Positions 2,985 through 23,926 of a DNA stretch of 64,000 bases are shown here, piece by piece. A program made the position numbers and the translations under genes. Origin of the DNA: an uncultured Acidobacteriota bacterium. GTDB lineage: Bacteria; Acidobacteriota; Thermoanaerobaculia; UBA5066. The notes beneath the pieces were generated by a model, which had not been told where the DNA came from, made no database searches, and worked only from the letters and a program-made list of their open reading frames with translations. How positions within the stretch are numbered: the stretch's first letter is position 1; every line of letters starts with the position of its first letter. The stretch covers positions 1,888,001-1,952,000 of the forward strand of contig CAVZYA010000001.1 in NCBI GenBank assembly GCA_963779415.1, written 5' to 3'.

Positions 2985-4556
2985 ATGCGCGCACCAATCG
3001 ACGAAAAGCTTGACGGAAGGCATCGCTTTAGCGCGGTTCTGGGGCTATTTGTCCCGGCTCTTTTCGCATACGGCTTCCTCTTCACACTCGTAACGGCAGT
3101 CGATTCCGGCCAACTCGTCCCTTTTCAGCAACAGCGACGTCGAGCGGCTGTTCCAACCAAAGTTCCTACGGTCTTACACGCAGCCGGCTTCGTTACTTAC
3201 CCTCTCGTGGCTTCCGGGGATCATCGCTATCTTCAGGATCAGAGCGGGCAGCCGTTTCCCATTCTGGGGCGAGTCGCGTGGGACATACCCTCGCTGAGTC
3301 TCTCGGACTATCAGCTTTTCGTCGACGATACGGTGGCGAAGGGCTTTAACGCCATCCTGCTCAACTTTCTGGACCGGGATGGATATAACGCTCCGTTCGA
3401 CGGAAACAACCAGCTTCCGTTCATCAAGAAACTCGACGGCACGGTATGGGACGGCTCGATGGCGGCGGGCGTGAATCCCGATTACACGACGCCCAACGAG
3501 ACCTACTGGCAGCACATCGACGGGATGCTCGATTACGCGTCTCAGAAGGGATTGCTTTGTCTTGTATTCCCGAGTTACGTCGGCCAGAACGGCAATCTCA
3601 CCGCCGGCTGGATGCAGCCGATGACCTCCAACGGGCCTACAAGGATGAGCGCCTACGGAGCCTTTCTCGCCAACAGGTACAAGACCTACGGAAATCTCGT
3701 CTGGATGCTGGGGGGGGATTACGGCTCGCCACCGGCCTCGTTCTCCGCGCCGGAGCTGGCCGTCGAGCAGGCTCTGCTTTCGGGTTTGAAGAGCGTCGCC
3801 GGCCAGCAGAGCGTCAACTTTTCCGCCGATTGGGCTGGCGATTCGATCTATACGTCGCAGACCGATGCCACGCTGAAGGCGGCCGGAACGCTTCAGGGGG
3901 CTTACACATGGAACTCCGTTTCGGAGTGGTGCCGGAGCGGCTACGCGGCGACCCCGGCGATGCCCGCGTATCTCGTCGAAGGACCTTATGACGAGGAAGG
4001 GCCGGATGGAACGGACGACAATCCAGGCGCCACCCAGCCCGTGCGCCGCTTCCAGTGGTGGAGCGTTCTTTCCAGCATAGGCGGCTACGTCACGGGCAAC
4101 GGCTACGTCTGGAAGTTCATGCCCGGCATCTGGAACAATCACCTGAACACTCAGGGCGCGCAGGACATGGCGCGACTCAATGCGTTCGTTCGATCCATCG
4201 CCTGGTACCACCTGGTCCCGTCCGGTCTGAATGGCATGAAGACGATCATCACGGCGGGCGGCTCGAGCGTGACGGCGTCGGACTACGTGGCCGCGGCGGC
4301 CGACCCGGCCGGAACGCTTCTCGTCGCCTACGTCCCGCCCGACCACACGGGGACGATCACCGTGGACATGACCGTCATGGGCGGAGCGGCGCGAGCACGC
4401 TGGTTCAACCCGGCGACGGCAGCCTATACGCTGATCAGTTCGAGTCTCGCCAATACCGGCACCTACACCTTCACACCGCCCGGCGACAATGGCTCGTGGT
4501 ATACCGACTGGGTCCTCGTTCTGGATCCGGCGACTTCGACACATGCATTGAGGTAG
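2985..4556 (+). CDS. Secreted DUF4038/GH140 (apiosidase-like) hydrolase with C-terminal collagen-binding-like domain, no SLH tail
   Basis: GGAGG before ATG 2985; hydrophobic N-terminus; [32 protein letters not shown]. Confidence 0.72.
   Translation: MRAPIDEKLDGRHRFSAVLGLFVPALFAYGFLFTLVTAVDSGQLVPFQQQRRRAAVPTKVPTVLHAAGFVTYPLVASGDHRYLQDQSGQPFPILGRVAWDIPSLSLSDYQLFVDDTVAKGFNAILLNFLDRDGYNAPFDGNNQLPFIKKLDGTVWDGSMAAGVNPDYTTPNETYWQHIDGMLDYASQKGLLCLVFPSYVGQNGNLTAGWMQPMTSNGPTRMSAYGAFLANRYKTYGNLVWMLGGDYGSPPASFSAPELAVEQALLSGLKSVAGQQSVNFSADWAGDSIYTSQTDATLKAAGTLQGAYTWNSVSEWCRSGYAATPAMPAYLVEGPYDEEGPDGTDDNPGATQPVRRFQWWSVLSSIGGYVTGNGYVWKFMPGIWNNHLNTQGAQDMARLNAFVRSIAWYHLVPSGLNGMKTIITAGGSSVTASDYVAAAADPAGTLLVAYVPPDHTGTITVDMTVMGGAARARWFNPATAAYTLISSSLANTGTYTFTPPGDNGSWYTDWVLVLDPATSTHALR
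3197..4532 (+). repeat. 1.34-kb inverted repeat, copy 1 (partner 18494-19829)
   Basis: Read against the reverse complement of 18494-19829: I found three synonymous differences in the body and a few more in the last ~36 bp. Confidence 0.93.
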
Positions 4557-4860
4557 ACGTGCCGCTGCCGGTACCCGGCATGGGTCCGAGCAGCCGCCAG
4601 CTTCCCCAGGCGCCGCCGAAGCAGCCGAACTTCTTCTTCTACCGGAAGTAAGTCGGTTCGGCCACCCCCATCTTCCGCCAGATCTCCTCCACCCGCGTTC
4701 CCGCCTTCCCCCGCCGCTGGGCCACCGCGATCTGCTCCTCCGAGTACCGGCGCTTCCTCATCGATCCGTCCTCCCGGACCCTTCCCGAGCCTCAGAACGT
4801 ACCGAACGCCACGCCATTTACGAGAGCCGCCCCGGACCAGGAATCGGGGAGAAGACCCGG
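4550..4860 (-). mobile_element. Degenerate IS3-family remnant (OrfA start joined to an OrfB scrap)
   Basis: From ATG 4761: MRKRRYSEEQIAVAQRRGKAGTRVEEIWRKMGVAEPTYFR*KKKFG (OrfA HTH, W->TAG); then LAAARTHAGYRQRHVYL resembling OrfB GYRR motif. Confidence 0.8.
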
Positions 4861-4941
4861 CAGATGATCTTCCTGCCGCAGTCAAGAGCGGGTGCGGCTG
4901 CGACTCAGGCTTGATATCCTTCTTCCGAGCCAAAGGAGCAA

Positions 4942-7788
4942 GTGATGCGTACACTCTGGGGCCGGATCTTCCCGCTGTTGTTCCTCACCGCTGGCACCGC
5001 CGCTGGCAGCGTTACTCTCGTCGGTTCCCCGAGCCACGGTCACGCCACGGCCACCTCGCTCACGATCTCACACACGAACTCGGGCGACTACCTCGTTGTC
5101 GCGGTCTTCAACCACAGCTACCCGGAGGCGACCGCCGTCACTTACAACGGCGTGTCGCATGACACGGCTGAATGTCGCCGGCCCCATCGGGCAGACCGAG
5201 ATGGTCATTCTATTCGGGCTCGCCGCGCCCGCCTCCGGTACTCACGATATCGTGGTTACGGACGGCGGGAACTCTCGGTATTTCTATGTGGTCGCGCAGT
5301 CCGTTCGAGCGGCGTGCATCAGACACGCCCGTTCCGTCCGGGTGGCGGTGACTATCGAGCCTTTCTCACGGCACCGTTCACCTATACCGTGCCGTCCGAA
5401 ACCGGGTGGATGGTGCTCGACGCGCTGTGGACCGACGCGAACCACGGTGGCAGCATCGCTCCGAGCGGTGACAATACCCTCGTTGTATTTCGAGCACAAC
5501 GGCTTCGGCATGGGCATGTCCTTCGCCCCCGGAGCTGCGACCGTCACGATGGGGTGGACGTGGCCCGATACCCCTCTCGTTTGTCCATTCCATCGTTCAG
5601 TTGCGCCCGGCCACGGACGACGCGCCGGACGTAACGCTGGACAACGCGGGCGCGCCTGCCTACGCTGCCAGTACCACGACGGCGGACGCCACCGTTACGG
5701 TCGGCGCCGGGACGAATCGCGCTCTGACCGCCGCGCTCGTCTTCGACAACAAGTCAGTCTCCGGCGTCTCCGTCGTCTACGATCCGGCGGGCGCGAACCA
5801 GTCGCTCTCTCTCATCAAGAGCGAGGTCACGTCGGGCAGCTGGGGACGCGCGGAGCTGTGGGGCCTCCTTGCTCCGGCCACCGGCACGAGCAAGACCCTG
5901 CGTGTCAGCTGGACCGGCTCGTCGGACATCGAGGTTGCCGGGGCGTCGTGGACGAACGTGGACAGACGGCGGACGCAGCTTCGCCCACGCGCATCAAACA
6001 CAGGCACTACCGACGACCTACAACCCTCCAGATCACGAGCGGAGTCCACAACGTCACGTCGACTGCGCCGTCGCCATCGGCGGGTATCACCGACACGAAC
6101 TGGGCAGCGCAGATGATGCTGTTCGGTCCCTCATATCTATCAACATCGGGACCGGCGCCATCTCCAATTACCAGCCCGGTTCTACGACCGGCTATCATTG
6201 GCTGAACGGCCAGCTGGGCGCGAGCATCTGGGCGATCGTGGGCTGCGACATCGTGGTGGCGGGCTGCACGCCGCCCGCCACGCCGACCATCACCCCCGGC
6301 GGCCCGACGACGTTCTGCGCGGGCGGGAGCGTCACGCTCACGTCGTCGAGCGCGACGGGCAACCAGTGGTACCTCAACGGCAACCCGATCGGCGGCGCCA
6401 CCTCCCCGCAGTACAACGCCACCGCCTCGGGCGACTACACCGTCACCGTCACGGCCGGCGGCTGCACCAGCGCCCCTTCCGCCGCGACCACGGTCGTCGT
6501 CAACCCGGTGCCGGCCATCCCTGTCATCACGGCGCCGGCCCGGCGTTCGCGGGGGCAACGGGACTCATCGCGAGCGTCCCGCTCCATGCCGGGAGCAGCT
6601 ACAGCTGGGGCATCACGAACGGCACGATCACCGCCGGCGCCACGACGAACCAGATCACCTTCACGGCGGGAGCTTCGGGCACGATCGTCCCTCCGCCGTG
6701 ACCGAGACGAACGCCGCAGGCTGCGCCTCGCCGACCGGCCAACGCATACGTCCCGATCGTCATCGTCCAGCCCGCCGGCCTCGTCGAGGACGCCCACGCG
6801 ACACGGCGGGAACGAGTCTCGAACGTCAACGGCGTCCTCGAGCCGGGCGAGACGGTCCTCGTCAACGCCTCCTGGAAGAACACTGGGCGCCTCGCCGCTG
6901 GCCCTCACCGGAACGGCTTCCGCTTTCACCGGACCGGCCGGCGCCACTTACTCCCTCCTCGACTCCGTCGCCGACTACGGGACCATCGCCCCCGGAGCCA
7001 CGGCCGACAGCTGGTCGGTCGGGGTGGCCTCCTACCGCCTCTCCGTCTCCAATCCGGCGACCCGCCCCGCCGCCCACTGGGACGCCACCTTCCTCGAGAC
7101 GCTCAGCTCCCTCGAGCAGAAGACCTGGACCCTTCACATCGGACAGAGCTTCACGGACGTACCCGTCTCCGACGGCGCCTACCGCTTCGTCGAGACCCTT
7201 CTCCACAACCTGATCACCGCCGGCTGCGGCGGCGGCAACTACTGCCCCGCCAGCGACGTCACCCGCTGGCAGATGGCCGTCTTCCTCGCCACCGCCATGG
7301 TCGGCCCCACCGGCACCGTGCCGACGAGCGGGATCGTCCCGGGCGTGGGCACGTACAACTGCACCTCCGGCGGCAACTCCCTCTTCGCCGACATCCCGCC
7401 GACCGACGGGGGCTGCAAGTTCATCCACTACACCTATGCGGCAGGAATCACCGCCGGATGCGGCGGCGGGAACTACTGCCCGGCCTCGAACATCAGCCGC
7501 TGGCAGATGGCGGTCTTTCTCGCCACGGCCATGGTCGGCCCGACCGGCACCGTGCCGACGAGCGGGACCGTCCCGGGCGTGGGCACCTACAACTGCACTT
7601 CGGGCGGCAACTCCCTCTTCAGCGACGTCCCGCCGACGGACCCGGGCTGCAGGTTCATCCACTACATCTATGCGGGAGGGGTCACCGCCGGCTGTGGCGG
7701 CGGCAAGTACTGCCCCGCGAGCAACGTCACCCGCTGGCAGATGGCGCCCTTCCTCGTCACCGCTTTCCAGATCCCTCTTCTCTACTGA
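4942..7788 (+). pseudogene. Multiply frameshifted secreted surface protein: two uncharacterised beta-rich domains, two Ig-like domains, GLVED domain, 3x SLH-like
   Basis: Coherent protein pieced together from ORFs 4942, 5096, 5601, 6198, 5869; C-terminal [13 protein letters not shown]...[10 protein letters not shown] x3. Frameshifts may be sequencing errors. Confidence 0.72.
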
Positions 7789-7975
7789 CTCGCTGCAGAG
7801 GCCGCTCTGTCGCTCTTCTCGGCCTCTGGAGAAGCTCGCGACCGCGCCGTCTCCGGTCCTCGTTCCTGAAACTCCTGGCGGTACTTCCCGTTCGGCCCCC
7901 AAGAGTCTCAATCCTCTACGACACCTCTCGCTCGGCCGGACAGAAACTTTGAAGTCAGGGTCGTACTCCCGACTC

Positions 7976-10154
7976 TCATTGCGTCGTTGGTGACGGGCGC
8001 GGAGTCTCCGGGAGGTTCCCCGGCATCAAAGGGCCTCGCCACGGTTCATGCTCCTGCGCCCTCACGATGAAGGCGTTGAAGGGCCGACCCGTTGGCCCGC
8101 GCGCCGTGTAGCCGATCCCGGCGGCGGCCGTCAGGCCGTCCATCGGAAGGGAGACGGTCCCGCCGGCGTACGTGCCCGAGTAGACCGGCTCCGCGTAATA
8201 GTCCTGCGCGTTCATGATGTTGATGGCGGTGCCGACGGCGACGGCGGACGACAGATCGACGTCGACGCTTGTCAGGTTCTCCCAGTTGTAGACGTAGATG
8301 TTGGCGCGGTTCGCCTCGTAGGCGTTGGGCCGGACGACCACGAGGTTCGTGGTCGGCTTCGCGGGCGGGGTGTAGTAGGTATTGGTCGGGAAGTCGGCCT
8401 GCGTGAAGTTCCTCCAGGGTGCCGATGATCGTGTTCCCGTCGATCGTCATCGCATCCCATTTCGAGGAAGGGCTCGGCACCTTCGTCGCATGGTGAATGA
8501 CGTTGTCCGTCACCGCGAAGTTCGTCATGTCGGCCATGTCGTAGCCGATGTTCACGCCGTTGTCCCAGAGGTAGTTCTCCGTGAAGACGCTGTCGGTCAG
8601 GAGGAAGCCCGCGAGGCCGCCGAGCATGACGTCACTGTAGACATACAGGTTCCCCTCGAACCTCGTATTCATGCAGGAGGCGCCGCTGGAGCCGTAAGCC
8701 TGCATTCCGTAGGCGACCTGGTCGAGGAAGATGTTGTCCTTGACGAGCTTGCCGGTTCCGGCGGTCTTCTGCTGGATGTACATCCCGTGGCCGTGGCCGT
8801 AGAGGTTCGGCGTCCAGTTCCACGCCATGTTTACGCTCGGAGCCCCTGCGGCGTAGGACATCCTGACGACGGGATTGTTGCCGGTAACGGCGCCACCGAG
8901 TCCCGTGTTGTCCCCGGAGGCGTGGTAGTCCTGAAGGGAGCAGTAGGAGTTGTAGATCGCGACGCCGTCCACGACCATGTGGTTTGCCGCCGATGTCGTC
9001 GTCGCGCCGAAGGGCGGAAGATGCACAGTTGTCGTTCACCACTTACCGCCTGTGCTCGGGGCCATCGTCTGGTTGACGTTCAGAACGACTGCGCCCCCGC
9101 AATGATGGGTCCGCCACCAGCGCCCCGCGAGTCGGTCACGACGACGTCATGCGTTCCAGTATGGCCCGCGATCCGAACACGGCAACGGGCCTTGAGTAGC
9201 CGTCCTTTCCGTTGAGGAGCGTCATCGCAACGCCGTCGTAGGTCGCGGACAGGTCCGTGTAGGGATTCACGTTCGACCGGAGCGACGACGACCGTGTAAT
9301 CGCCCGTGTTGTTGTGCGAGATCGTGATCGGTGAATAGCGCCCGCCCTGCCGCCGCTGAATGTTCCCGCGAGGGCGACCGGCGTGGCGCCCGCCGGGATC
9401 AGGTCGATGGCCGCCGCTGCTTCCGGCTCCCCGACGGGCGCATAATCACCGTTGTAGTAGACGAGGTTCCCGTAGAACTCGAGTCGTGCAGCCGCAGTTG
9501 CTGCGGGAAGGCACCCTCGCCGCCGTCGTGCAGGATGCAGTTGATGACCTTGCTGTGCGGCGCCGTGATCCAGACGCAGTCGCCGCGTTCGGCATTGAGC
9601 TTGAAATCGTTGGCGGGAACGATGCGGTCCGGGTTACTGTTCGTGATCTCCACGTCGCGCAAGATCAGGTATTCCCGTGGACGGTGATGTTGTTGTATCG
9701 CAGCCAGACGGTCGGTTGGCCGTTCCCGGCCTTGGCGGGGTCATAGTTCCCGTCGATGACGGCCCGTTCGCCGGGGTAGCCCGAAAGGTGATGTAGTGTC
9801 CCGCCGCGCCGTCGAGACTACAGAGAGAACTGCCCCGTGTACGTCCCGCCCCGGAGCCAGACGGTATCGCCCGGCTGAACCGTGTTGGCCGGGTAGCCGC
9901 CCAGGAGGGCCTGCGTCAATGTCCACGGATCGCCCACGGTCCCCTTTCCCGTGGCCGAACCCGTTGTCGAGGCGAAATATCCAGCGGGCGCGCCCGGGCC
10001 GTAGTGGCGGGTCGCCGTCCGGCCAGTCCCGGCACGCAGCCCCGCGCCGGCCGAAGCGAGAGGTGGGCCGCGCCGCTTCAGGGACGGCCGTGGCGTGGCA
10101 TCCGAGAATGAAAGAGACGAAGGTGAGGGCGAGACGAAGCAGAGCGGGTTTCAT
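7976..10154 (-). pseudogene. Multiply frameshifted secreted right-handed beta-helix protein with inserted domain
   Basis: Signal peptide at 10154; EITNSNPDR, KVINCILHDGGEG, GNLVYYNG, GHGHGMY, RPNAYEANRANIYVYNW all match paralog 12440-13813. Confidence 0.68.
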
Positions 10155-10341
10155 TTGTAGTACCTGACGATACCGCGATTACGGGCGAGCGGAGCGAGGG
10201 ATCTTGACCCGATTTCGATGACACATCGACCTACTTCTCCCGGTATCTTCCGGCCCACATCAAGTCGGGCGTCGCTCGGCTCCCCCTTCGGTCCCTCCAC
10301 GGCCGTTGATGCCGCAGCTCGCGCCCTCACGCTGCGATTAC

Positions 10342-11396
10342 TCAAAGATTGCCGTCAGAATCGAAGATACTGTACCGCATCCGCGAACGACGCGGCAGGA
10401 ACCGCGACGGCGGTTCGCAAAGAATCTGACACCGCCGTCGGAAGAACAGAAAGCCCGCCATCCGAAGCCACTTTTCCTCTTCGGGGCTCTGAGCATAGGC
10501 TTGCACCGTCTTACCGTTCGCCTCTATCGCCATCGATCGTATCGTCGAAAACAGGCTGATAAAACTCTCCCACGACAGCGGCCCACCAGTCGAACACGTA
10601 GAAATACGGCCGCCGCGGAGCCCACGATGCCATAGCTTCCGTCTTCCGTCCGCAAAGCATCGAGCGGTTCGGCAAAGCCCGGCAAACCATTGCACCGCCA
10701 AGCCAGGAACTCCTCGTCGTGAACTATGAACGGCTCAGCCTGACGCGCTTGCTGCTTCGCCACGAGTCCCGCCACCTCTCGCCACGATCCCTTCTCGACC
10801 GCCCCCTTTCCGTCTGGTCGGTGCCTCAAGAGCCTGCGGCCACGCCACCAGAAGACTGGACGGACGGCCGCACTAACCGCCGGGATAACCACGCTCAAAC
10901 GAGACGGAATCTTCCAACTCAATATATGCGCAGGATCAAGCGGGAACACCGCCATGGCCGGGCCCTCTAACGACGCGAAGCCGATCCGCCGCATGGTAAC
11001 GTCGGCGGCAGCACTCGGGTTGCTACCGAGCGTCACGATACCCCGAGCCAGGGCTGCATCAAATAACAGTGATGCGATTCCTCGCCGGCGAAGCGACGAG
11101 TCGACCATCAGATCGCAAGCCCATTGGCATCCGAAGCGTTCTCCATCGATGCTCACCGAGGCTGGAATCAGCCCCAGCTGTCCGACGACTTCGCTGCCCG
11201 ATAGCGCCAACAACAAGCCATCTACTGCTCCGCGATTCGGACCGCGGAATTTCCATCGATTGTATCGGTCCTCTCGACGGCGCCGTTTCGATGGCCACAT
11301 CTTCGTCGCAAATCGCACATGCGCTTCGCATGACCGCTCGTCGTAGGGCGCGATCGTTATCTTTCCTGAATCACTCTCGCCCGGCGTCTGCGTCAC
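10342..11396 (-). CDS. GNAT-family N-acetyltransferase (one frameshift near 10610)
   Basis: WACDLMVDSSLRRRGIASLL acetyl-CoA motif; C-terminus continues in ORF ending 10342. Confidence 0.78.
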
Positions 11397-12247
11397 GATA
11401 TTCCGGTTTCCAGCGCCAGGTGCTCCGAAACGGATCGCGCCCGAATCCGTCCAGCCGCCTGCAATTCCGAAAGGTGTTCAAGGAACGGCACCAGGTGAAC
11501 GAGGCTCTCTTCCCTTTCCCGGGTGAGTCCTGACGGATGTCCATTGATGACGATCGACTGCCGCTCCGCTACGGCGCGATCCACCAGCCGGATCGCCTCG
11601 CTATCGAAACCGGTGTAGTTGAGTGGAATACATGCGATACCGCCGTTCCGCTCCAGGCGGCCGCTGATCAGCGGCCTTTCATCGGTGCCCCTGATCCTCT
11701 GAACAAGGGATCTATAGGACACCCGGCACCACGAGTAACCCGCGTTCCGCAGTTCCCGGCAAAGAGACCCGATGTTGCCCGCAGCTCTGAATGGGCTCAA
11801 GGAGCGATCACCAATGCTGATGGCTCCCTTTTTGTACCAGGTCATCGGCCGGCTGAATGGTGGAACAAATCCTTTCACGGAATCTGCTTCGCCGAGGCAC
11901 GTTTCGAGCGCCTGCTTGCTTCTCGTCAACGACCGCCGCACCTGCTCGCGCTCGAGGAACGGAAACCATTCGTGCCGCCATGAGTGTGATGCGATCTCGT
12001 GCGAGGCGGCTCGAATTCTTCGCAGCTGCTCCGGTACATGATACGGAAAATGCCCGGGTTCGGCTGCGAATCCGACGCAGGCGAAAGTCATTCGTAACCC
12101 CATGGTCGAGCCGAGCTCGAGAACGCGATCGACGTTTTCGATCTCCGTCTGCAGGAGTTCCTCGCGGTACTTGTAAGGGTACGATGCGTTTATCTGGCCA
12201 ATGGCCGTATCGTAGTCCCAGATGATCAGAACGGACGGAACGTGCAT
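11393..12247 (-). CDS. Polysaccharide deacetylase (CE4/NodB family)
   Basis: IIWDYD, TFACVG, HEIASHSWRH, GFVPP, INGHP; overlaps GNAT start. Confidence 0.85.
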   Translation of the reverse strand: MHVPSVLIIWDYDTAIGQINASYPYKYREELLQTEIENVDRVLELGSTMGLRMTFACVGFAAEPGHFPYHVPEQLRRIRAASHEIASHSWRHEWFPFLEREQVRRSLTRSKQALETCLGEADSVKGFVPPFSRPMTWYKKGAISIGDRSLSPFRAAGNIGSLCRELRNAGYSWCRVSYRSLVQRIRGTDERPLISGRLERNGGIACIPLNYTGFDSEAIRLVDRAVAERQSIVINGHPSGLTREREESLVHLVPFLEHLSELQAAGRIRARSVSEHLALETGIS

Positions 12248-12439
12248 TACGCGTCTTCCGCGACTAGCGGGACCTCGCAGGACACCGGAAAGTTGGAGAC
12301 GCCCCCGGAGCGCGTGGTGACGTGGGGTCCTCTCTCGACGGCTAAAGACATAGCTCTGTAGCCGACCAGATCATGACGGACGGCTCTTCTCCCGCCGGGC
12401 GTATTTGTTTGTTCTTCATCGATGGCTCTCGGGGCTCCG

Positions 12440-13813: not shown

Positions 13814-13864
13814 GGGCCGGATTCTACCCGCAGCGCCGAGCCGCCTTCTGGTCCTGGCAGGAGG

Positions 13865-16804
13865 TCACTGGAGGAATGGGATGTTGAAGGCCCGCACGAG
13901 GAAGATCGCCATCTGCCAGCGGGTCAGGGGGGTGTTCGGGCAGTACTTGCCGCCGCCGCAGCCAGCCGTGACGCCCCCCGCGTAGATGTAATGAATGAAG
14001 CGGCAGGTGCCATCCGTCGGCTGGACGTCGCCGAAGAGGGAGTTCCCTCCCGCCGTGCAGTTGTAGGAGCCGACGGAGGGGACGGTACCGCTCGTGGGGA
14101 CGGTGCCACTCGGACCGACCATTCCCACAGCCAGAAAGACGGCCATCTGGCTGCGGGTGACGTTCGAGGAGGGGCAGTACTTGCCACCGCCGCAGCCGGC
14201 GGTGATTCCCTGGGCGTAGATGTAGTGGATCGAGGGGCAGGCAGCGTCGGCCGGTGCCACGTCTCCGAAGAGGGACGTGCCACCGGTGGTGCAGTTATAG
14301 GTTCCAACACCCGGCACGGTCCCGGACGTGGGAACCGGCACGCCGGGTCCGAGCAGGGAGCGTGCGAGGAGCACAGCCATCTGCCAGCGGGTGACGTCGC
14401 TGGCGGGACAGTAGTTGCCGCCACCGCAGCCGGCGGTGACGCCATTGTGGAAGATACTTTCGACAAAGGGGTAGGAGACGTCCGAGGTGGGCACGTCGGT
14501 GAAGCTCTTGCCAACGTGGAGAGTCCAGGTCCTGGCGACGCCGTTGCTGAGCGTCTCGAGGAAGGTGGCGTCCCAGTGGGCGGCGGGGCGGGTGGCCGGG
14601 TTGGAGACGGAGAGGCGATAGGAGGGCCCTCCGGCCGAGAAGCTGTCGGCGGTGGCGCCGGGAGCAATGGTGCCGTAGCCGGCAGCCGAATCGAGGAGGG
14701 AATAGGTCGCCCCGACAGGACCTGTGAAGGCAGAGGCGGTGCCCGTCAAGGAGACAGGAGAGCCGCCGACGTTCTTCCAGGAGGGGTTGGCAAGGACCGC
14801 CTCGCCCGGCTCCAGAATCTTGTTGACGTTCGAGACCGTTCCGCCCGTGGCGTGAGCGTCCTCGACGAGGCCGACGGGCTGGGTGTCGATGTAGACGTTC
14901 GCGCCTGCGCTCGGAGAAACGCAGCCCGTGGCGACGGTCGTCTCCACGACGGACAGAATGGTGACCCCGGAGGATCCTGCCGTGAAGGTGATCTGGTTCG
15001 TCGTACCTCCGGCGGTGATCGTGCCGTTGATGATGCCCCAGAGGTAGCTGCTCCCGGCGTGGGACGGGACGCTTGCGGCAAGTCCCGTGGCGCCCGGTAG
15101 TGCCGAGGCCGGTGCGGTGATGACGGGGATGGCCGGCACCGGGTTGACGACGACTGTCGTCGTCCCGGGTGCCGAGGTGAGCCCGCCAACCGTCACGGTC
15201 ACGCTGTACAGGCCGGCGTTGGCCACCGTCGCGTTGGGGATCGTCGGGTTCTGAAGCACCGAGGTGAAGCCGTCAGGACCGGTCCACGCATAGGTCGCGC
15301 CGGCAACCGTCGGCGTCGAGAGCGAGATGGTCGCGCCTGCGCAGTAGGGGCCGGTGTTGGTTGCCGTCGGCGTGGGAGGCGGAGTGGTCCCACCTCCCAC
15401 CGTCAGGACGACGAAGGTGGCGAAGGCGGGTCCGGTCGACGAAGGAGCCGCATAGCCGACGGGCGTGGCCGGCGTCAGCCCCGTCATCGGCACGGAGACC
15501 GTCCCCCCGCCATATGTCCCGCTGACCACCGGTGTCCCGTAGAAGTTCTGCGCGTTGCGGATCTCGTAGGCCGCGCCTGCGCTCACGGTCCCCGTCAGGT
15601 CCACCGCCTGCGTCCCGCTCCCGTCCCAGTTGTCGACGACGATCGTCGCCCGCCCCGCCTCGTACGCGTTCGGCAGAATCGTCACATGGTCCTGGGTCGG
15701 CGGGCTCGTCCTCGAATAGTACGTGTTGTTCGGGTAGTCGCCCGGCACAAACCCGCTCAGGTCCCCCACGAACGTGTTCCCCGTGATGGTCTCCCCGGCC
15801 CGGCAGCCGGTGCTCCCCGGCGAAAACACACCGCCGCTGACGTTCGTCAGGTAGTTCCCGGTCACCGTCACGCCCGCGCACTTCGTCGTGGAGTACCCCA
15901 TCGTCAGCGTCGACAACCACGAGAAGTTCCCCGTCACCGACGTCCCACCGATGTCGAACCCGCTCTCCCCTCCCACCAGCGACGTCCCACGCCACCACAC
16001 GTTCCCGTCCACCTGCGAGTCTATGAACCCCGCCGTCCCCGATCCGTAGGCATGCAGGTTGTAGCCGAACTGGTCGAAAAGAATGTTGTGCTTGATGACC
16101 TTCGTGCCGCCGTATCCCAGATTCTGCGCGTAGATGGCGTGCCCGTGCGGCCGGTCCGGTGCGTTCCACCCGTTGTAGTAGATGATGTTCCCGTAGTACT
16201 CCGAGTTCGTGGATATCGACGTCAGATCCAGCCCCTCGCCCGTGTCATGGATGACGACGTTGATGATCTTCGTCCCCGGTCCCCACACCCCAATACCCGA
16301 GTCACGCGCGTCCACCGGGTTCGACCCCGGCGTCGGGTTCCACCGGTTCGGGTTCGAGTCCATCACCTCGAACCCCCAGTACCACGTGTACGCCCCGCTT
16401 ACCTTGAGAATCCAGCCGTCGGTACCGAGAACCTCGGGGTTCACGTTCCCGTCCAGCGTCGCCCGCTCCCCCGGATACTGCCGCACCACGATCGGCTGGC
16501 TCGACGTCCCCGTCAGAGAGCTCGTGAACAGTCCCGTGTACGTCCCCCCACGCAGCCAGATCGTGTCCCCGGGATGCACCGCCGATGGCTGCGACAGCGC
16601 CGTCTGAAGTGCCCACGGATTCGATATCGTCCCCGTCCCCGGCCCCGTGCCCGTCGTCCCCGTCGGTGAAACGTAAAAGTCGGACGCCCAGACTGACGCA
16701 GTGAAAAGGAAAAGCGCGAGGACGAGGGCAGCGCGAGCCGCATCAATTCCTCTGCGAATCGCGAGACAGATCTTCACGTTCGCAAGCTTAACGTCTTCGT
16801 GCAT
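13865..16804 (-). CDS. Surface protein B: beta-helix + two Ig-like domains + GLVED domain + 3x SLH-like
   Basis: Intact ORF, start codon uncertain (16804 or 16867); modules homologous to neighbours. Confidence 0.85.
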   Translation of the reverse strand: MHEDVKLANVKICLAIRRGIDAARAALVLALFLFTASVWASDFYVSPTGTTGTGPGTGTISNPWALQTALSQPSAVHPGDTIWLRGGTYTGLFTSSLTGTSSQPIVVRQYPGERATLDGNVNPEVLGTDGWILKVSGAYTWYWGFEVMDSNPNRWNPTPGSNPVDARDSGIGVWGPGTKIINVVIHDTGEGLDLTSISTNSEYYGNIIYYNGWNAPDRPHGHAIYAQNLGYGGTKVIKHNILFDQFGYNLHAYGSGTAGFIDSQVDGNVWWRGTSLVGGESGFDIGGTSVTGNFSWLSTLTMGYSTTKCAGVTVTGNYLTNVSGGVFSPGSTGCRAGETITGNTFVGDLSGFVPGDYPNNTYYSRTSPPTQDHVTILPNAYEAGRATIVVDNWDGSGTQAVDLTGTVSAGAAYEIRNAQNFYGTPVVSGTYGGGTVSVPMTGLTPATPVGYAAPSSTGPAFATFVVLTVGGGTTPPPTPTATNTGPYCAGATISLSTPTVAGATYAWTGPDGFTSVLQNPTIPNATVANAGLYSVTVTVGGLTSAPGTTTVVVNPVPAIPVITAPASALPGATGLAASVPSHAGSSYLWGIINGTITAGGTTNQITFTAGSSGVTILSVVETTVATGCVSPSAGANVYIDTQPVGLVEDAHATGGTVSNVNKILEPGEAVLANPSWKNVGGSPVSLTGTASAFTGPVGATYSLLDSAAGYGTIAPGATADSFSAGGPSYRLSVSNPATRPAAHWDATFLETLSNGVARTWTLHVGKSFTDVPTSDVSYPFVESIFHNGVTAGCGGGNYCPASDVTRWQMAVLLARSLLGPGVPVPTSGTVPGVGTYNCTTGGTSLFGDVAPADAACPSIHYIYAQGITAGCGGGKYCPSSNVTRSQMAVFLAVGMVGPSGTVPTSGTVPSVGSYNCTAGGNSLFGDVQPTDGTCRFIHYIYAGGVTAGCGGGKYCPNTPLTRWQMAIFLVRAFNIPFLQ
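13870..14665. repeat. Direct repeat of SLH-tail DNA (partner 20889-21684)
   Basis: Near-identical sequence at offset 7019. Confidence 0.9.
15398..16681. repeat. Direct repeat of beta-helix DNA (partner 22415-23697)
   Basis: Near-identical sequence at offset 7017/7016. Confidence 0.92.
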
Positions 16805-16960
16805 GCACGGGTACTGGCCGAAGGACATGACGTCGAGACAGGAGACGCACCGTCGGCCCTGTACCAAAGGACAGGCTCGCGCCGTCGTGGCCCCATCTAT
16901 CGCCAGTTCAAGCGTCGCACTTCAGGCCCGTGTCTCCACCTTCCATCGGCCCGCTGTTTC

Positions 16961-19900
16961 TCAGTGGAGGAAGGGGATGTTGAAGGCCCGCACGAGGAAG
17001 ATCGCCATCTGCCAGCGGGTCAGGGGGGGGTTCGGGCAATACTTGCCGCCGCCGCAGCCAGCCGTGACACCGCCCGCATAGATGTAATGGATGAAGCGGC
17101 AGGTGCCGTCCGTCGGCTGGACGTCGCCGAACAGGGAGTTCCCTCCCGCGGTGCAGTTGTAGGAGCCGACGGAGGGGACGGTGCCGCTCGTGGGGACGGT
17201 GCCACTCGGACCGACCATTCCCACAGCCAGGAAGACGGCCATCTGGCTGCGGGTGACGTTCGAGGAGGGGCAGTATTTGCCGCCGCCGCAGCCGCAGGTG
17301 ATTCCCTGGGCGTAGATGTAGTGGATCGAGGGGCAGGCAGCGTCGGTCGGTGCCACGTCTCCGAAGAGAGACGTGCCACCGGTGGTGCAGTTATAGGTTC
17401 CAACACCCGGCACGGTCCCGGACGTGGGAACCGGCACGCCGGGTCCGAGTATGGAACGTGCGAGGAGTACAGCCATCTGCCAGCGGGTAACGTCGCTGGC
17501 GGGACAGTAGTTGCCGCCACCGCAGCCGGCGGTGATGCCATTGTGGAGGACACTCTCGACATAGGGGTAGGAGACGTCGGAGACCGGAACGTCCGAGAAA
17601 CTCCGGCCCATGTGGAGAGTCCAGGTCCGGGTGATGCCGTTGCTGAGCGTCTCGAGGAAGGTGGCGTCCCAGTGGGCGGCGGGGCGGGTGGCCGGGTTGG
17701 AGACGGAGAGGCGATAGGAGGGCCCCCCGGCCGAGAAGCTGTCGGCGGTGGCGCCGGGGGCGATGGTGCCGTAGCCGGCAGCCGAATCGAGGAGGGAATA
17801 GGTCGCCCCGACAGGACCTGTGAAGGCAGAAGCCGTACCTGTGAGGGCGGCCGGGGAAGCACCGATGTTCTTCCAGGAGGCGTTGACGAGGAGGGTTTCT
17901 CCCGGCTCCAGAATCTTGTTGACGTTCGAGACCGTTCCGCCCGTGGCGTGAGCGTCCTCGACCAGACCGGCGGCCTGGACGGCGACTGTCGGTGTCTGGG
18001 TCGGCGTCGGCGTCGGCGTGGGAGTCGATGTAGAGCTCGGCGGTGGCGTCGGCGTCCGCGTCGGCGTCGCCGTGGCTGTCGGAGCGACTGTCGGCGTCCA
18101 CGTCGGCGTGGACGTTGGGGTCCGCGTCGGCGTCACCGTCGGCGTAAAAGTCGGAGTCGCCGTCGCTGTCGCAGCGACTGTCGGCGTCCGGGTCGGAGTG
18201 GACGTTGGGGTCCGCGTCGGAGTCATCGTCGGCGTACGAGTCGGCGTCGCCGTGGCTGTCGGAGCGACTGTCGGCGTCCGAGTTGGCGTGGACGTCGGGG
18301 TCCGCGTCGGAGTCATCGTCGGCGTACGAGTCGGCGTCGCCGTGGCTGTCGGAGCGACTGTCGGCGTCCGAGTTGGCGTGGACGTCGGGGTCCGCGTCGG
18401 AGTCGCCGTTGGAGTTCGAGTCGGAGTCGACGTGGCTGTCGGAACGACTGTGGGTGTCCGGGTCGGGGTTGGCGTAGGCGTAGGCGTCAGGCCCGCCGGA
18501 TCCAGGACGAGGATCCAGTCGGTGTAGCCCGAGCCATTGTCGCCGGGCGGTGTGAAGGTGTAGGTGCCGGTATTGGCGAGACTCGAACTGATCAGCGTAT
18601 AGGCTGCCGTCGCCGGGTTGAACCAGCGTGCTCGCGCCGCTCCGCCCATGACGGTCATGTCCACGGTGATCGTCCCCGTGTGGTCGGGCGGGACGTAGGC
18701 GACGAGAAGCGTTCCGGCCGGGTCGGCCGCCGCGGCCACGTAGTCCGACGCCGTCACGCTCGAGCCGCCCGCCGTGATGATCGTCTTCATGCCATTCAGA
18801 CCGGACGGGACCAGGTGGTACCAGGCGATGGATCGAACGAACGCATTGAGTCGCGCCATGTCCTGCGCGCCCTGAGTGTTCAGGTGATTGTTCCAGATGC
18901 CGGGCATGAACTTCCAGACGTAGCCGTTGCCCGTGACGTAGCCGCCTATGCTGGAAAGAACGCTCCACCACTGGAAGCGGCGCACGGGCTGGGTGGCGCC
19001 TGGATTGTCGTCCGTTCCATCCGGCCCTTCCTCGTCATAAGGTCCTTCGACGAGATACGCGGGCATCGCCGGGGTCGCCGCGTAGCCGCTCCGGCACCAC
19101 TCCGAAACGGAGTTCCATGTGTAAGCCCCCTGAAGCGTTCCGGCCGCCTTCAGCGTGGCATCGGTCTGCGAGGTATAGATCGAATCGCCAGCCCAATCGG
19201 CGGAAAAGTTGACGCTCTGCTGGCCGGCGACGCTCTTCAAACCCGAAAGCAGAGCCTGCTCGACGGCCAGCTCCGGCGCGGAGAACGAGGCCGGTGGCGA
19301 GCCGTAATCCCCCCCCAGCATCCAGACGAGATTTCCGTAGGTCTTGTACCTGTTGGCGAGAAAGGCTCCGTAGGCGCTCATCCTTGTAGGCCCGTTGGAG
19401 GTCATCGGCTGCATCCAGCCGGCGGTGAGATTGCCGTTCTGGCCGACGTAACTCGGAAATACAAGACAAAGCAATCCCTTCTGAGACGCGTAATCGAGCA
19501 TCCCGTCGATGTGCTGCCAGTAGGTCTCATTGGGCGTCGTGTAATCGGGATTCACGCCCGCCGCCATCGAGCCGTCCCATACCGTGCCGTCGAGTTTCTT
19601 GATGAACGGAAGCTGGTTGTTTCCGTCGAACGGAGCGTTATATCCATCCCGGTCCAGAAAGTTGAGCAGGATGGCGTTAAAGCCCTTCGCCACCGTATCG
19701 TCGACGAAAAGCTGATAGTCCGAGAGACTCAGCGAGGGTATGTCCCACGCGACTCGCCCCAGAATGGGAAACGGCTGCCCGCTCTGATCCTGAAGATAGC
19801 GATGATCCCCGGAAGCCACGAGAGGGTAATTGACATTGCCCGATTCGATCAAGAAGGTACCGCCGCCCGGATTCACGTTCCGATCAAACGTCGCCCGCTC

Positions 19901-20199
19901 CCCCGGAAACTGCTTCAACATGATCGGCTGGCCCGGACTCCCGTTCAGGTAGCTGGTGAAGCTCCCTTTGTACGTCCCCCCCGCAGCCAGATCGTGTCCC
20001 CGGGATGCACCGCCGAAGGCTGCGAGAGACCCGTCTGCAGGCTCCACGGGTTCGTGATCGTCCCCGTCCCGGGCCCCGTGCTCGACGTCCCGGTCGGTGA
20101 GACGTAGAAGTCCACGCCGGCGGCGACGAAGACAGCGGCGAGCAGCACCGCTGCGACAGCCGCGAACATGCCTCCGCGACGAGTCAATCGGGCCTTCAC
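16961..20199 (-). CDS. Surface protein C: beta-helix N-cap + GH140-like hydrolase + Pro/Thr linker + GLVED domain + 3x SLH-like (frameshift at G7 tract 19976-19982)
   Basis: ORF 19945-20199 gives signal peptide to WLRGG; ORF 16961-20047 continues TYKGSF. Confidence 0.82.
18000..18487 (-). repeat. Coding tandem repeat, 90-bp (30 aa) Pro/Thr unit
   Basis: Perfect period 90 over ~18207-18404, degenerate flanking copies; unit [30 protein letters not shown]. Confidence 0.88.
18494..19829 (-). repeat. 1.34-kb inverted repeat, copy 2 (partner 3197-4532)
   Basis: Same length and near-identical to copy 1. Confidence 0.93.
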
Positions 20200-20639
20200 G
20201 GCCGAGAAGTTACCCTTTCGAACTGGTGACGGGCTACTGATCGGACGGCGTGTTCTCGGGACAGGGAACGGTCCCGTCCAACTCCTGTCCCGCAGGACAG
20301 GCTCACGCGATCGTGAAGGTGGCGATCCGGACTCCGGTCAGCCGGCCAATGCTCTGCGCTCAATGTCATCGGGAGTGTTCCGGCCGCGTGGTTTCCCACG
20401 CCGGTCCTCCCGACCTCTTTCACCAGTAGAACCACCGCCGCGTCACCCTTCCTCCCCTGTACTATCCGGAAGTTGATGGAATACCGCCCAGAGACTCGGC
20501 ATCCGGCTCTCTCCGCCGGCTGACCGGGCCGTTCAGTCACTTCCCTCAGGACTCCTGGCGCAAACGAACAGCGTCCTGGAGCCCGAACTCATGCGCACGG
20601 GAAATTCTAGCAGACACGCGTCGAGTGGGCTCTGCCTCG

Positions 20640-20832
20640 ACCTGCCGGAAGAAGCCGTTGGCGCCGAGAACCACGTCGATCGGGCTCGAAGCGTGATTCT
20701 GGATTGCGATCGTAGCTCTTCCGTCGGAGGGGGGCCACCACAATGTTCTTCACCTGAGAACAGTTCTCGCTGTAGTTGGTGCTGCTCACAAGAGGTGCAC
20801 TGATATTGGCCCATAGACCCGAAGATCTTCGA
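20640..20832 (-). pseudogene. Relic of a different C-terminal surface-protein domain
   Basis: Across frames: EDLRVYG/ANISAPLVSSTNYSENCSQVKNIVVA/PSDGRATIAIQNHASSPIDVVLGANGFF, resembling a ..STINY..QTRANNAIV..DVNGYF-type terminus (from memory). Confidence 0.45.
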
Positions 20833-20883
20833 GCTTTCTGGGATTCACGCCCGTGTCTCCACCTTCCCTCGGCCCGCTGTGTG

Positions 20884-23838
20884 TCAGTGGAGGAATGGGA
20901 TGTTGAAGGCCCGCACGAGGAAGATCGCCATCTGCCAGCGGGTCAGGGGGGTGTTCGGGCAGTACTTGCCGCCGCCGCAGCCAGCCGTGACGCCCCCCGC
21001 GTAGATGTAATGAATGAAGCGGCAGGTGCCATCCGTCGGCTGGACGTCGCCGAAGAGGGAGTTCCCTCCCGCCGTGCAGTTGTAGGAGCCGACGGAGGGG
21101 ACGGTACCGCTCGTGGGGACGGTGCCACTCGGACCGACCATTCCCACAGCCAGAAAGACGGCCATCTGGCTGCGGGTGACGTTCGAGGAGGGGCAGTACT
21201 TGCCACCGCCGCAGCCGGCGGTGATTCCCTGGGCGTAGACGTAGTGGATCGAGGGGCAGGCAGCGTCGGCCGGTGCCACGTCTCCGAAGAGGGACGTGCC
21301 ACCGGTGGTGCAGTTATAGGTTCCAACACCCGGCACGGTCCCGGACGTGGGAACCGGCACGCCGGGTCCGAGCAGGGAGCGTGCGAGGAGCACAGCCATC
21401 TGCCAGCGGGTGACGTCGCTGGCGGGACAGTAGTTGCCGCCACCGCAGCCGGCGGTGACGCCATTGTGGAAGATACTTTCGACAAAGGGGTAGGAGACGT
21501 CCGAGGTGGGCACGTCGGTGAAGCTCTTGCCAACGTGGAGAGTCCAGGTCCTGGCGACGCCGTTGCTGAGCGTCTCGAGGAAGGTGGCGTCCCAGTGGGC
21601 GGCGGGGCGGGTGGCCGGGTTGGAGACGGAGAGGCGATAGGAGGGCCCTCCGGCCGAGAAGCTGTCGGCGGTGGCGCCGGGAGCGATGGTGCCGTAGCCG
21701 GCAGCCGAATCGAGGAGGGAATAGGTCGCCCCGACAGGACCTGTGAAGGCAGAAGCCGTACCTGTGAGGGCGGCCGGGGAAGCACCGATGTTCTTCCAGG
21801 AGGCGTTGACGAGGAGGGTTTCTCCCGGCTCCAGAATCTTGTTGACGTTCGAGACCGTTCCGCCCGTGGCGTGAGCGTCCTCGACCAGACCGGCGGCCTG
21901 GACGGCGACTGTCGGTGTCTGGGTCGGCGTCGGCTCGGGTCGGCGTGGGAGTCGATGTAGAGCTCGGCGGTGGCGTCGGCGTCCGCGTCGGGGTCGGAGT
22001 CGCGGTCGGAGTGCTCGTTGGGGTCCCTGTCGGCGTGCGAGTCGGAGTTGCCGTCGCTGTCGGAGCGACTGTCGGCGTCCACGTCGGCGTGGACGTTGGG
22101 GTCCGCGTCGGCGTCGCCGTCGGCGTCCGAGTCGGCGTCGCCGTGGCTGTCGCAGCCACTGTCGGCGTCAGGGTCGGAGTGGGCGTGGGGGTCGGCGTCG
22201 CCGTCGGCGTACGAGTCGGCGTGGATGTGGGGGTCAACGTCGACGTCACCGTCGGTGTACGGGTTGGAGTCGGGGTCGCCGTGGCCGTGGGAGGGACTGT
22301 CGGCGTCCGAGTCGGAGTGGACGTCGGGGTTGGCGTCGGCGTCGGTGTATTGGTCGGAGCCGGAGTTAATGTGGGAGTAGGCGTTACGGTCGGGGTTGGC
22401 GTCGGGGAGCCTGACACCGTCAAAACGACGAAGGTGGCGAAGGCGGGTCCGGTCGACGAAGGAGCCGCATAGCCGACAGGCGTGGCCGGCGTCAGCCCCA
22501 TCATCGGCACGGAGACCGTCCCCCCGCCATATGTCCCGCTGACCACCGGTGTCCCGTAGAAGTTCTGCGCGTTGCGGATCTCGTAGGCCGCGCCTGCGCT
22601 CACGGTCCCCGTCAGGTCCACCGCCTGCGTCCCGCTCCCGTCCCAGTTGTCGACGACGATCGTCGCCCGCCCCGCCTCGTACGCGTTCGGCAGAATCGTC
22701 ACATGGTCCTGCGTCGGCGGGCTCGTCCTCGAATAGTACGTGTTGTTCGGGTAGTCGCCCGGCACAAACCCGCTCAGGTCCCCCACGAACGTGTTCCCCG
22801 TGATGGTCTCCCCGGCCCGGCAGCCGGTGCTCCCCGGCGAAAACACACCGCCGCTGACGTTCGTCAGGTAGTTCCCGGTCACCGTCACGCCCGCGCACTT
22901 CGTCGTGGAGTACCCCATCGTCAGCGTCGACAACCACGAGAAGTTCCCCGTCACCGACGTCCCACCGATGTCGAACCCGCTCTCCCCTCCCACCAGCGAC
23001 GTCCCACGCCACCACACGTTCCCGTCCACCTGCGAGTCTATGAACCCCGCCGTCCCCGATCCGTAGGCATGCAGGTTGTAGCCGAACTGGTCGAAAAGAA
23101 TGTTGTGCTTGATGACCTTCGTGCCGCCGTATCCCAGATTCTGCGCGTAGATGGCGTGCCCGTGCGGCCGGTCCGGTGCGTTCCACCCGTTGTAGTAGAT
23201 GATGTTCCCGTAGTACTCCGAGTTCGTGGATATCGACGTCAGATCCAGCCCCTCGCCCGTGTCATGGATGACGACGTTGATGATCTTCGTCCCCGGTCCC
23301 CACACCCCAATACCCGAGTCACGCGCGTCCACCGGGTTCGACCCCGGCGTCGGGTTCCACCGGTTCGGGTTCGAGTCCATCACCTCGAACCCCCAGTACC
23401 ATGTGTACGCCCCGTTACCTTGAGAATCCAGCCGTCGGTACCGAGAACCTCGGGGTTCACGTTCCCGTCCAGCGTCGCCCGCTCCCCCGGATACTGCCGC
23501 ACCACGATCGGCAGGTCCGACGTCCCCGTCAGAGAGCTCGTGAACAGTCCCGTATACGTCCCCCCACGCAGCCAGATCGTGTCCCCGGGATGCACCGCCG
23601 ATGGCTGCGACAGCGCCGTCTGAAGTGCCCACGGATTCGATATCGTCCCCGTCCCCGGCCCCGTGCCCGTCGTCCCCGTCGGTGAAACGTAGAAGTCACT
23701 GACGGAAGCTGGAGTCGTGAACGACGTCAGAAGAAGGAGGCACGCCAAAACCAACCAGGCGGTCGGATTGAATCTCGAGCTGCCCTGGCGGATCCGAAAC
23801 TCAGCGATAGGAAGAGTCCTCTCTTCAGAGGGTAGCAT
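20884..23838 (-). CDS. Surface protein D: beta-helix + Pro/Thr linker + GLVED domain + 3x SLH-like (frameshifts ~23414 and ~21935)
   Basis: ORFs 23380-23838, 21314-23632 and 20884-21513 join; 1-bp deletion vs paralog B; 2-nt-short repeat unit vs paralog C. Confidence 0.8.
21915..22408 (-). repeat. Coding Pro/Thr low-complexity repeat
   Basis: (TPTx)n linker, partly shared with 18000-18487. Confidence 0.85.
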
Positions 23839-23926
23839 CTGCCGCTAACCCTAGGAGCCGTGGAATCCTTCTGCTACTGGCCCGGCGTCGAAAAAAGGCT
23901 CAGGAAGGACAGTACGTCTTGGCCTG

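Follow-up and report, generated by a model that had tools for sequence, protein, structure and literature searches.

Gene conversion between shared modules in an array of genes for secreted, putatively polysaccharide-active proteins of an uncultured Acidobacteriota bacterium

When a handful of protein modules recurs in differing combinations along one chromosomal locus, and some of the copies are almost identical, is this the work of a dedicated diversification system or of ordinary evolutionary processes? The question is raised by a stretch of 64,000 nucleotides (nt) – hereafter the window – from an uncultured Acidobacteriota bacterium (assembly GCA_963779415.1, contig CAVZYA010000001.1, positions 1,888,001 to 1,952,000). 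Between positions 2985 and 23838 of the window lie seven genes for secreted proteins, g1 to g7, built from beta-helix, GH140-like or unnamed beta-domain heads and from Ig-Ig or Pro/Thr spacers; some copies carry a presumably wall-anchoring tail, a GLVED domain plus three S-layer homology (SLH) domains, behind the spacer, and others are tailless. An earlier note on this DNA saw in the array a candidate undescribed diversification system, loosely like the sap cassettes of Campylobacter fetus. We think it likely that the array, which lies in a soil-type genome, is instead a lineage-typical cluster of paralogues for secreted polysaccharide-active enzymes of Thermoanaerobaculia-like Acidobacteriota, evolving by duplication, module swapping and gene conversion. 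It is a clear case of a known evolutionary process, and no new class of diversification mechanism.

The most direct evidence comes from the tail of g7. A three-way alignment of the tails of g5, g6 and g7 resolves into successive runs: 31 consecutive sites at which g6 and g7 agree and g5 differs, then 45 sites – broken by a single site private to g7 – at which g5 and g7 agree and g6 differs, and finally, past the stop codon, a return to agreement between g6 and g7. Across 104 informative sites the g7 tail switches allegiance nine times, against a mean of 53.6 in shuffled data, where the lowest value was 34 and none of 100000 shuffles reached nine. The tract so defined (20888 to 21684, minus strand) is about 795 nt long, differs from its g5 counterpart (13869–14665) at two positions, and is flanked on both sides by sequence identical to g6. 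Gene conversion between tails is demonstrable.

A self-comparison of the locus places this tract among a series of repeated blocks. The GH140 domains of g1 and g6 are inverted relative to one another and are 99.4% identical over 1336 nt (3197–4532 against 19829–18494); as longer inverted-repeat arms they span 1366 nt (3167–4532 and 18494–19859) at 98% identity, with 13961 nt between them. The helix heads of g5 and g7 (15398–16681 and 22415–23697, both on the minus strand) are 99.07% identical over 1284 nt, with 11 substitutions and one indel. Among tails, identity is 97.2% for g5 and g7 (13864–14882 against 20883–21901) and 92.8% for g5 and g6 (13865–14882 against 16961–17978); for g6 and g7, taken with part of the Pro/Thr linker (16921–18433 against 20844–22324), it is 89.6%. 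The head of g4 is about 79% identical to those of g5 and g7, the tail of g2 about 77–78% identical to the remaining tails, and the helix of g3 about 45% identical, at the amino-acid level, to the other copies.

The block ends are telling. As the earlier note had remarked, and as the self-comparison bears out, they mostly lie near domain boundaries: the GH140 block begins at the first GH140 codon, the tail block at the first GLVED codon and the helix block at the first mature residue, the last of these stopping where the linker, Ig-Ig in g5 and Pro/Thr in g7, sets in. Beyond the mature N-terminus, where homology begins, the signal peptides and upstream regions of g4 to g7 do not align. An exception is the 5′ breakpoint of the g7 tract, which sits inside the GLVED domain, away from its border. 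Such coincidence of block ends with module borders is expected because a conversion tract cannot outrun the homology between mosaic paralogues. For those who scan genomes the lesson is that near-identical blocks stopping at domain borders are a product of ordinary homologous recombination in mosaic paralogues.

If conversion has been frequent, how far back does it reach? The nearest relatives of the window are records of metagenome-assembled genomes (MAGs) labelled Acidobacteriota or Thermoanaerobaculia. The top protein match to g5 is 79% identical, and the best related loci are 81–86% identical at the DNA level. We refer to related loci as L001, L002, L004, L005, L007, L009 and L010 (L004, L009 and L010 being one genome) and to related proteins by numbers from P0006 to P0130. 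The locus L005, from another species, is collinear with the window and syntenic on both flanks (window positions 22–1266 at 78% identity, 26210–28457 at 82%). Its genes run in the order helix plus Pro/Thr, helix N-cap plus GH140 plus Pro/Thr, helix plus PKD, helix, helix, and an oppositely oriented GH140 beside a Wzt gene.

Comparison of the two loci is instructive. Within L005 the inverted GH140 pair is 97.9% identical and the helix pairs 97.8% and 98.1%, with 97.7% as a further helix estimate; the corresponding values within the window are 99.4% and about 98.8–99.1%. Between window and L005, identity is about 72% for GH140 and 83–84% for the helix (DNA). Paralogues within each genome are thus more alike than syntenic orthologues between the species – the pattern by which concerted evolution is defined, in the part of the published account cited here (PMC6053082) – and the modules evolve in concert. 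The fusion of cap, GH140 and Pro/Thr linker also occurs in L005 (amino-acid identity 59% for the cap and 56–70% for GH140; about 72% for DNA). Its presence in both species implies that the fusion is old and that the 99.4% identity within the window is secondary. Phylogenies agree: in a tree of 14 helix sequences paralogues pair by genome, with the four L010 copies monophyletic, and in a tail tree based on 21 distinct sequences (22 found, one exact duplicate dropped) the tails of g5, g6 and g7 form one clade and the four tails of the L004/L009/L010 genome another. The inference of homologous recombination or gene conversion made in the earlier note is strongly supported by the g7 mosaic together with concerted evolution at the syntenic locus.

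The kit itself extends well beyond the window, and alternative module junctions are present in relatives (L010, L005, L001 and the protein pair P0129 and P0130). L010 encodes helix plus Pro/Thr plus Ig-Ig plus tail and helix plus Ig-Ig plus tail, along with two more helix copies. Genes of L005 and L001 lack SLH tails and carry instead, after a Pro/Thr, PKD or Ig spacer, a domain of about 115 amino acids with the signature PCRxxDTR...VDVNGYF (L005 6845–7219, 9450–9830 and 11630–11990; L001 7090–7473), for which no Pfam family match was found. In L001 this PCRxxDTR tail is joined to the beta-domain head in intact open reading frames of 789 and 733 amino acids, and P0124 (939 amino acids) is an intact g2 orthologue of the same architecture, its SLH tail 91% identical to that of g2 (amino acid). 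The beta-domain head family is rare, with seven proteins found within the length range searched. P0129 and P0130, encoded on one contig and 66% identical to each other, combine a g1-like N-terminus, GH140, Pro/Thr and the PCRxxDTR tail; among the matches listed for the GH140 part, SLH was present in 0 of 120. The Ig-GLVED-SLH tail also occurs behind heads of quite another kind, M12 peptidase plus TIG, in P0006, P0009, P0010 and P0013 (70–73% identity over 52% of g5). In L002 (109–15730) four tandem intact genes of 1038–1373 amino acids all end in a tail of the Ig-GLVED-SLH type; a TIG domain, together with long internal repeats in a 150-nt register, occurs in three of them, and the repeat period is 4.1 kilobases (kb) at 81–87% identity. 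Shuffling of the parts kit over evolutionary time, as read from these sequences, is real and lineage-wide.

We propose that tandem duplication would have produced the array copies, that modules would occasionally have been swapped at flexible spacers, and that frequent non-allelic homologous recombination – gene conversion – would act between homologous modules, probably by way of general (RecA-type) machinery. The net visible effect is homogenisation, such that free and anchored copies of one catalytic module stay near-identical within a genome while diverging between species. Through the SLH tails, placed behind an Ig-Ig or Pro/Thr spacer, the enzymes are presumably retained on a polymer of the cell wall; what they act on may be pectin-like or may be the cell's own envelope glycans.

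Several observations weigh against this proposal, or at least restrict it. In the tail tree the g2 tail groups with L007, apart from g5, g6 and g7: homogenisation is not array-wide, and the g2 tail would belong to an older tail lineage that has escaped it. Conversion is read from assembled sequences across species (the nearest locus being 81–86% identical in DNA) and not within one population. The function of the heads is read entirely from fold and family likeness, with TM-scores to lyases of about 0.4–0.5. Finally, the array is set among genes for glycan synthesis and export, so that a polymer made by the cell itself, and not plant pectin, may be the substrate.

The anatomy of the seven genes, whose module combinations as described in the earlier note were borne out by Pfam and by module-by-module tblastn, is as follows. 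On the plus strand, g1 (2985 to 4556) begins at an ATG at 2985 and encodes an N-terminal hydrophobic anchor or signal (2985–3197) and a GH140 apiosidase-like catalytic domain with PF12904 (3198–4553); it is intact and tailless. Also on the plus strand, g2 (4942 to 7788) has two unnamed beta domains (4945 to about 6250), Ig-Ig (6313–6752), GLVED (6768–7140) and three SLH (7141–7776), in a frame that is broken many times. Both converge on g3 (7976 to 10154), which, like all that follows as far as g7, lies on the minus strand and specifies a lipoprotein-like signal peptide and a beta-helix into which a beta domain is inserted; its frame too is broken many times. Between g3 and g4, and outside the module kit, are genes for a GNAT-like acetyltransferase (10524–11396; GNAT family on the L001 orthologue) and a polysaccharide deacetylase-like protein (11393–12247; PF01522 on the L001 orthologue), a pair also kept beside the array in L001. 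The intact g4 (12440 to 13813) has a signal peptide and beta-helix head only, and g5 (13865 to 16828), also intact, a signal peptide, beta-helix (15398–16684), Ig-Ig (14882–15397), GLVED (14513–14881) and three SLH (13868–14512). In g6 (16961 to 20169; one frame break) a signal peptide (20113–20169) and helix N-cap (19829–20112) precede GH140 (18494–19828), a Pro/Thr linker (17978–18493), GLVED (17609–17977) and three SLH (16964–17608), and in g7 (20884 to 23838; two frame breaks) a signal peptide and beta-helix (22415–23700) precede a Pro/Thr linker (21901–22414), GLVED (21532–21900) and three SLH (20887–21531).

By Pfam, g1 and g6 both contain PF13204 (Apiosidase/GH140) and PF12904, g4 contains Beta_helix, g2 and g5 share PKD/Ig_7, and SLH is present in g2, g5 and g6. 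The PF13204 scores (148.6 bits, 4e-43, for g1 and 146.4 bits for g6) far exceed the curated cut-off of 26.5, and sequence matches to solved structures include the apiosidase 8t9w (1.2e-20) and 3kzs/5msy (8.7e-13) in the PDB; on this basis both domains are assigned as GH140 apiosidase-like. For the beta-helix head the evidence is structural. An AlphaFold2 model of g4 (pLDDT 83.2, pTM 0.87) shows a right-handed beta-helix followed, at the C-terminus, by a beta-sandwich, and its best Foldseek match is the pectate lyase Pel9A (1ru4, E 7.8e-9, TMq 0.50). PL6 lyases and a rhamnogalacturonan lyase follow at 1e-5 to 1e-6, and GH136 and phage tailspikes match equally well by fold. The sole sequence match of the head in the PDB is a weak one, BcAlyPL6 (E 0.2), and relatives carry the precomputed label PF22842. 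We predict a polysaccharide-cleaving fold, broadly Pel9A/PL6-like. The unnamed beta-domain head had no Pfam match, an AlphaFold2 model of it (P0124, seven-row alignment) was unusable at pLDDT 35.4, and the ESM Atlas gave, as a lead only, clusters of 'hypothetical protein' of about 231–236 amino acids, some of them viral.

As to the tails, that of g5 contains three PF00395 SLH stretches (E 3.5e-15), and the GLVED domain preceding them comprises 123 amino acids and belongs to no Pfam family; an internal periodicity of 234 nt accompanies the SLH repeats. No csaB-like Pfam match was obtained among the open reading frames scanned in the window. The Pro/Thr linker of g6 (18047–18466) is made up of 4.7 copies of a 90-nt (30-amino-acid) unit at 90% identity, and ordinary slippage could therefore lengthen or shorten it. 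The linker of g7 is a more degenerate form of that of g6.

A feature that the earlier note had missed is that only g1, g4 and g5 have uninterrupted reading frames: g6 and g7 are lightly broken, g2 and g3 heavily. The break in g6 lies at a G7 run (19976 to 19982, minus strand) that is 1 nt short, paralogues reading CGTGGGGGG and g6 CGGGGGGG, and it parts the signal peptide and cap from the remainder of the gene. A homopolymer miscall of the synonymous CGG-GGG-GGG, slipped-strand variation and a real lesion fit this break equally well. In g7 the helix and linker are out of frame with the signal peptide and tail, owing to the loss of 1 nt at 23414 (relative to g5) and the gain of 4 nt at about 21935–21938 in the Pro/Thr repeat (relative to g6).

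The damage to g2 and g3 is of another order. Against its intact L001 orthologue g2 has ten indels that are not multiples of three within 1.6 kb (4942–6540); they measure 1, 2 or 5 nt, and most lie away from homopolymers. Its tail has two further frame changes, near 6540 and 6880. For g3, where the L001 orthologue is an intact open reading frame of 794 amino acids, the number is 12, and the 3′ end of the GNAT-like gene has two 1-nt insertions relative to L001 (10580 and 10613). In all, some 24 frame-breaking indels fall in one contiguous stretch, 4942–10613, yet without nonsense codons and with a normal ratio of nonsynonymous to synonymous substitution (dN/dS). There are no in-frame stops in 520 (g2) and 699 (g3) aligned codons, dN/dS is 0.43 and 0.41 (0.15–0.60 in seven control comparisons), and the AT-ward substitution asymmetry is 1.04 and 1.11 (0.59–1.50 in eight). 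The view that g2 and g3 are old pseudogenes is given up, since no sign of substitutional decay was found. Very recent real inactivation is about as likely as a locally poorer consensus, such as strain mixture across 4.9–10.6 kb might cause, and the stretch may be one that varies between strains or was poorly resolved in assembly. Indels specific to the window were found neither in the coding part of 26.2–30.1 kb (compared with three relatives) nor in 22–1266; the GTG start at 27389 has a shared indel upstream of it, at 27399, and relatives too carry singleton indels in flank genes. The sole break noticed outside the array splits a gene for a GT2 enzyme plus methyltransferase at about 41815–41975, where GT2 profile positions 1–52 and 53–166 are in different frames.

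With these facts in hand the idea of a dedicated system can be weighed. The earlier note's undescribed, sap-like system is not supported: each copy has its own signal peptide and divergent upstream sequence, the copies share neither a 5′ box nor a single site of expression, and families of recombinase, invertase, transposase and reverse transcriptase were found in none of the 126 (of 128) open reading frames of at least 150 amino acids scanned outside the array across the 64-kb window. Within that same set its remark that the window holds no recombinase is correct. Inverted repeats in 2500–24200 are paralogous modules only, and none of the short kind occurs at module borders. Inversion or silent cassettes of the sap type are rejected on account of the unalignable upstream regions and signal peptides of g4 to g7 and the lack of a shared 5′ recombination region; a shufflon or inverton, as far as genes in the window go, on account of the recombinase scan and the nature of the inverted repeats; and a diversity-generating retroelement because the same scan gave no reverse transcriptase family and because the repeats differ in every kind of way, the differences falling together in tracts. 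Programmed surface variation as the earlier note proposed it, in which cassettes would recombine on a physiological time scale to alter the cell's display and interrupted copies would act as silent donors after the fashion of C. fetus sap or of pilE/pilS, could appeal to near-identical modules in both orientations, to a demonstrable conversion tract that ends in a frame-broken copy, and to the breakage of four of the seven copies, with a G7 run at the break in g6. We nevertheless consider it very unlikely, for beyond the missing enzymes the 5′ ends are non-homologous, with every copy, broken ones included, having its own signal peptide; the g2 tail (77–78%) and g3 helix (about 45%, amino acid) are too far from other copies to be active donors; the arrangement is collinear with L005; and the frame breaks may themselves be consensus errors. 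Rather more can be said for a physical flip, although we still judge it unlikely: crossing-over between the 1.37-kb inverted GH140 arms would invert a 14-kb segment and exchange C-termini, so that the GH140 with the g1 N-terminus would gain a Pro/Thr and SLH anchor and the cap-GH140 copy would lose its own. The arms are 98–99.4% identical and 13961 nt apart, L005 keeps an equivalent inverted pair at 97.9%, and P0129 and P0130, with g1-like N-terminus, GH140, Pro/Thr and tail, suggest that the recombinant form is viable; yet the orientation in L005 is the same as in the window, and gene conversion without crossing-over accounts for the identity of the arms. It is similarly doubtful that at least two species deliberately maintain free and tailed GH140 copies as near-identical inverted repeats, so that RecA, with no recombinase, could switch the enzyme between display and release. 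The tailed copy has SLH in the window and a different C-terminal domain in L005, and on this reading the whole array could also change its anchoring mode as one tail type, SLH or PCRxxDTR, spread by conversion. Against the earlier note's diversification system there is also the keeping of both the pairing of free with tailed GH140 and the cap-GH140-Pro/Thr fusion in L005, which indicates a layout stable over the divergence of the species; the detectable effect of recombination is homogenised copies instead of the variation in displayed versus released product that the earlier note envisaged. Clusters of modular enzymes whose modules are more than 99% identical have, moreover, been published before (PMC3082886).

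Two further explanations would do without gene conversion. That strain variants or collapsed repeats were laid side by side in a metagenome contig is suggested by the resemblance of the window to MAG records, by the density of indels in 4.9–10.6 kb and by the singleton indels of relatives' flank genes; but each block has unique and differing flanks in a different gene architecture, similar repeated modules recur in independent records (L005, L010, L001 and L002), and the breakpoints of the g7 tail mosaic are sharp and in register, and we find this the hardest of all the alternatives to credit. Recent segmental duplication alone, with each block a young copy, would be expected to yield identities of 97–99.4%, as observed. 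It is highly improbable all the same: the g6-type fusion and the pair of helix plus Pro/Thr and helix plus Ig are already in L005 and pre-date the species split, in both species identity within the genome is far above that between genomes, and a three-part mosaic such as the g7 tail cannot come from a single duplication. Duplication, module swapping and gene conversion together remain the reading we prefer.

The surroundings of the array are concerned with glycan synthesis and export: Wzt-type and ABC-2 transporters, GT2 enzymes, methyltransferases, ArnT/PMT-like enzymes, and formyltransferase and epimerase genes. The window is rich in G+C (59–74% in 2-kb steps), and the array is lower in G+C than the sequence to its right. 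Scans of the window for Rfam families and tRNAs returned none. A promoter and terminator scan of 4400–24200 gave no sigma-70-like promoter sites and seven terminator-like sites (9.5 expected), and is uninformative on promoter position. Two tandem genes for ArnT/PMT-like membrane glycosyltransferases (53612–55200 and 55650–57238) are just 71.8% identical and, unlike the array modules, unhomogenised. Genes for Wzt-type ABC ATPases lie near both ends of the window and have in common an inverted stretch that is 70.6% identical (336–606 against 58040–58310). A multi-pass membrane protein with no Pfam match is encoded between g7 and the ABC-2 transporter (23927–25489, minus strand; local G+C about 59%), and a Fic/DOC-family protein with a Fic_N domain amid the glycan-synthesis genes (49265–50449, minus strand).

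What, then, does the array offer? Gene conversion at the level of the domain is seen in it with unusual clarity: the 795-nt tract is sharp, and modules have been homogenised independently in two species although the genes that contain them retain different architectures. It indicates that in uncultured Thermoanaerobaculia-like Acidobacteriota one and the same putative polysaccharide-degrading module can come both free and SLH-anchored. The array also brings out three parts that lack a Pfam family: the GLVED domain, the PCRxxDTR C-terminal domain and the rare beta-domain head.

In the literature searched we found no report linking Thermoanaerobaculia or GH140 with S-layer homology, and no description of this array. 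Related phenomena are nonetheless well known. The sap system of C. fetus comprises promoterless cassettes with a shared 5′ region, served by one invertible promoter, and its products leave the cell by type I secretion. Our array resembles it in having several homologous surface-protein genes, in both orientations, at one locus with homologous recombination among them; it differs in that its 5′ ends are unlike one another, its copies all encode Sec-type signal peptides, a search for inverted repeats gave no invertible element, and its proteins are putative enzymes rather than S-layer subunits. The tufA and tufB genes of enterobacteria, an inverted pair, are kept nearly identical, much like the GH140 modules here. 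In the array, by comparison with such concerted evolution, conversion affects single modules in genes of differing architecture, the unit being the domain and not the gene.

Modular glycoside hydrolases anchored by SLH are described from Firmicutes – Cel5I of Ruminiclostridium cellulolyticum, enzymes of Paenibacillus sp. JDR-2, and ChiW – and SLH trimers bind wall polymer, according to those portions of the reports drawn on here (PMC4976890, PMC4765114, PMC5132251; PMC6081394). So far as those portions go, the layout is the same: a catalytic head, spacers, and a C-terminal triple SLH for holding at the surface. The array departs from them in the extra, unnamed GLVED domain before SLH, in a host that is presumably a diderm Acidobacteriota, and in that several paralogues share one tail, exchanged by gene conversion.

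Of the systems already described, the one that comes nearest is found in Caldicellulosiruptor bescii and C. saccharolyticus: their main CAZy cluster, also called the glucan degradation locus. In the sections of the published description consulted (PMC3082886), all but one of the CBM3 modules of the C. bescii cluster are more than 99% identical and three GH48 modules are 100% identical; the cluster differs in composition between species and is truncated in a sister species. To the extent covered by those sections, both loci encode secreted multi-modular enzymes drawn from a small, linker-joined kit whose modules are near-identical within a genome. The Caldicellulosiruptor cluster is from Firmicutes and is built of GH5, GH9, GH48 and CBM3, whereas the array is from Acidobacteriota and is built of beta-helix, GH140 and SLH tail; the shared non-catalytic module is here a predicted wall anchor and not a cellulose-binding module. 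The array goes beyond the Caldicellulosiruptor case in that a mosaic conversion tract, and concerted evolution across species, are directly shown in it.

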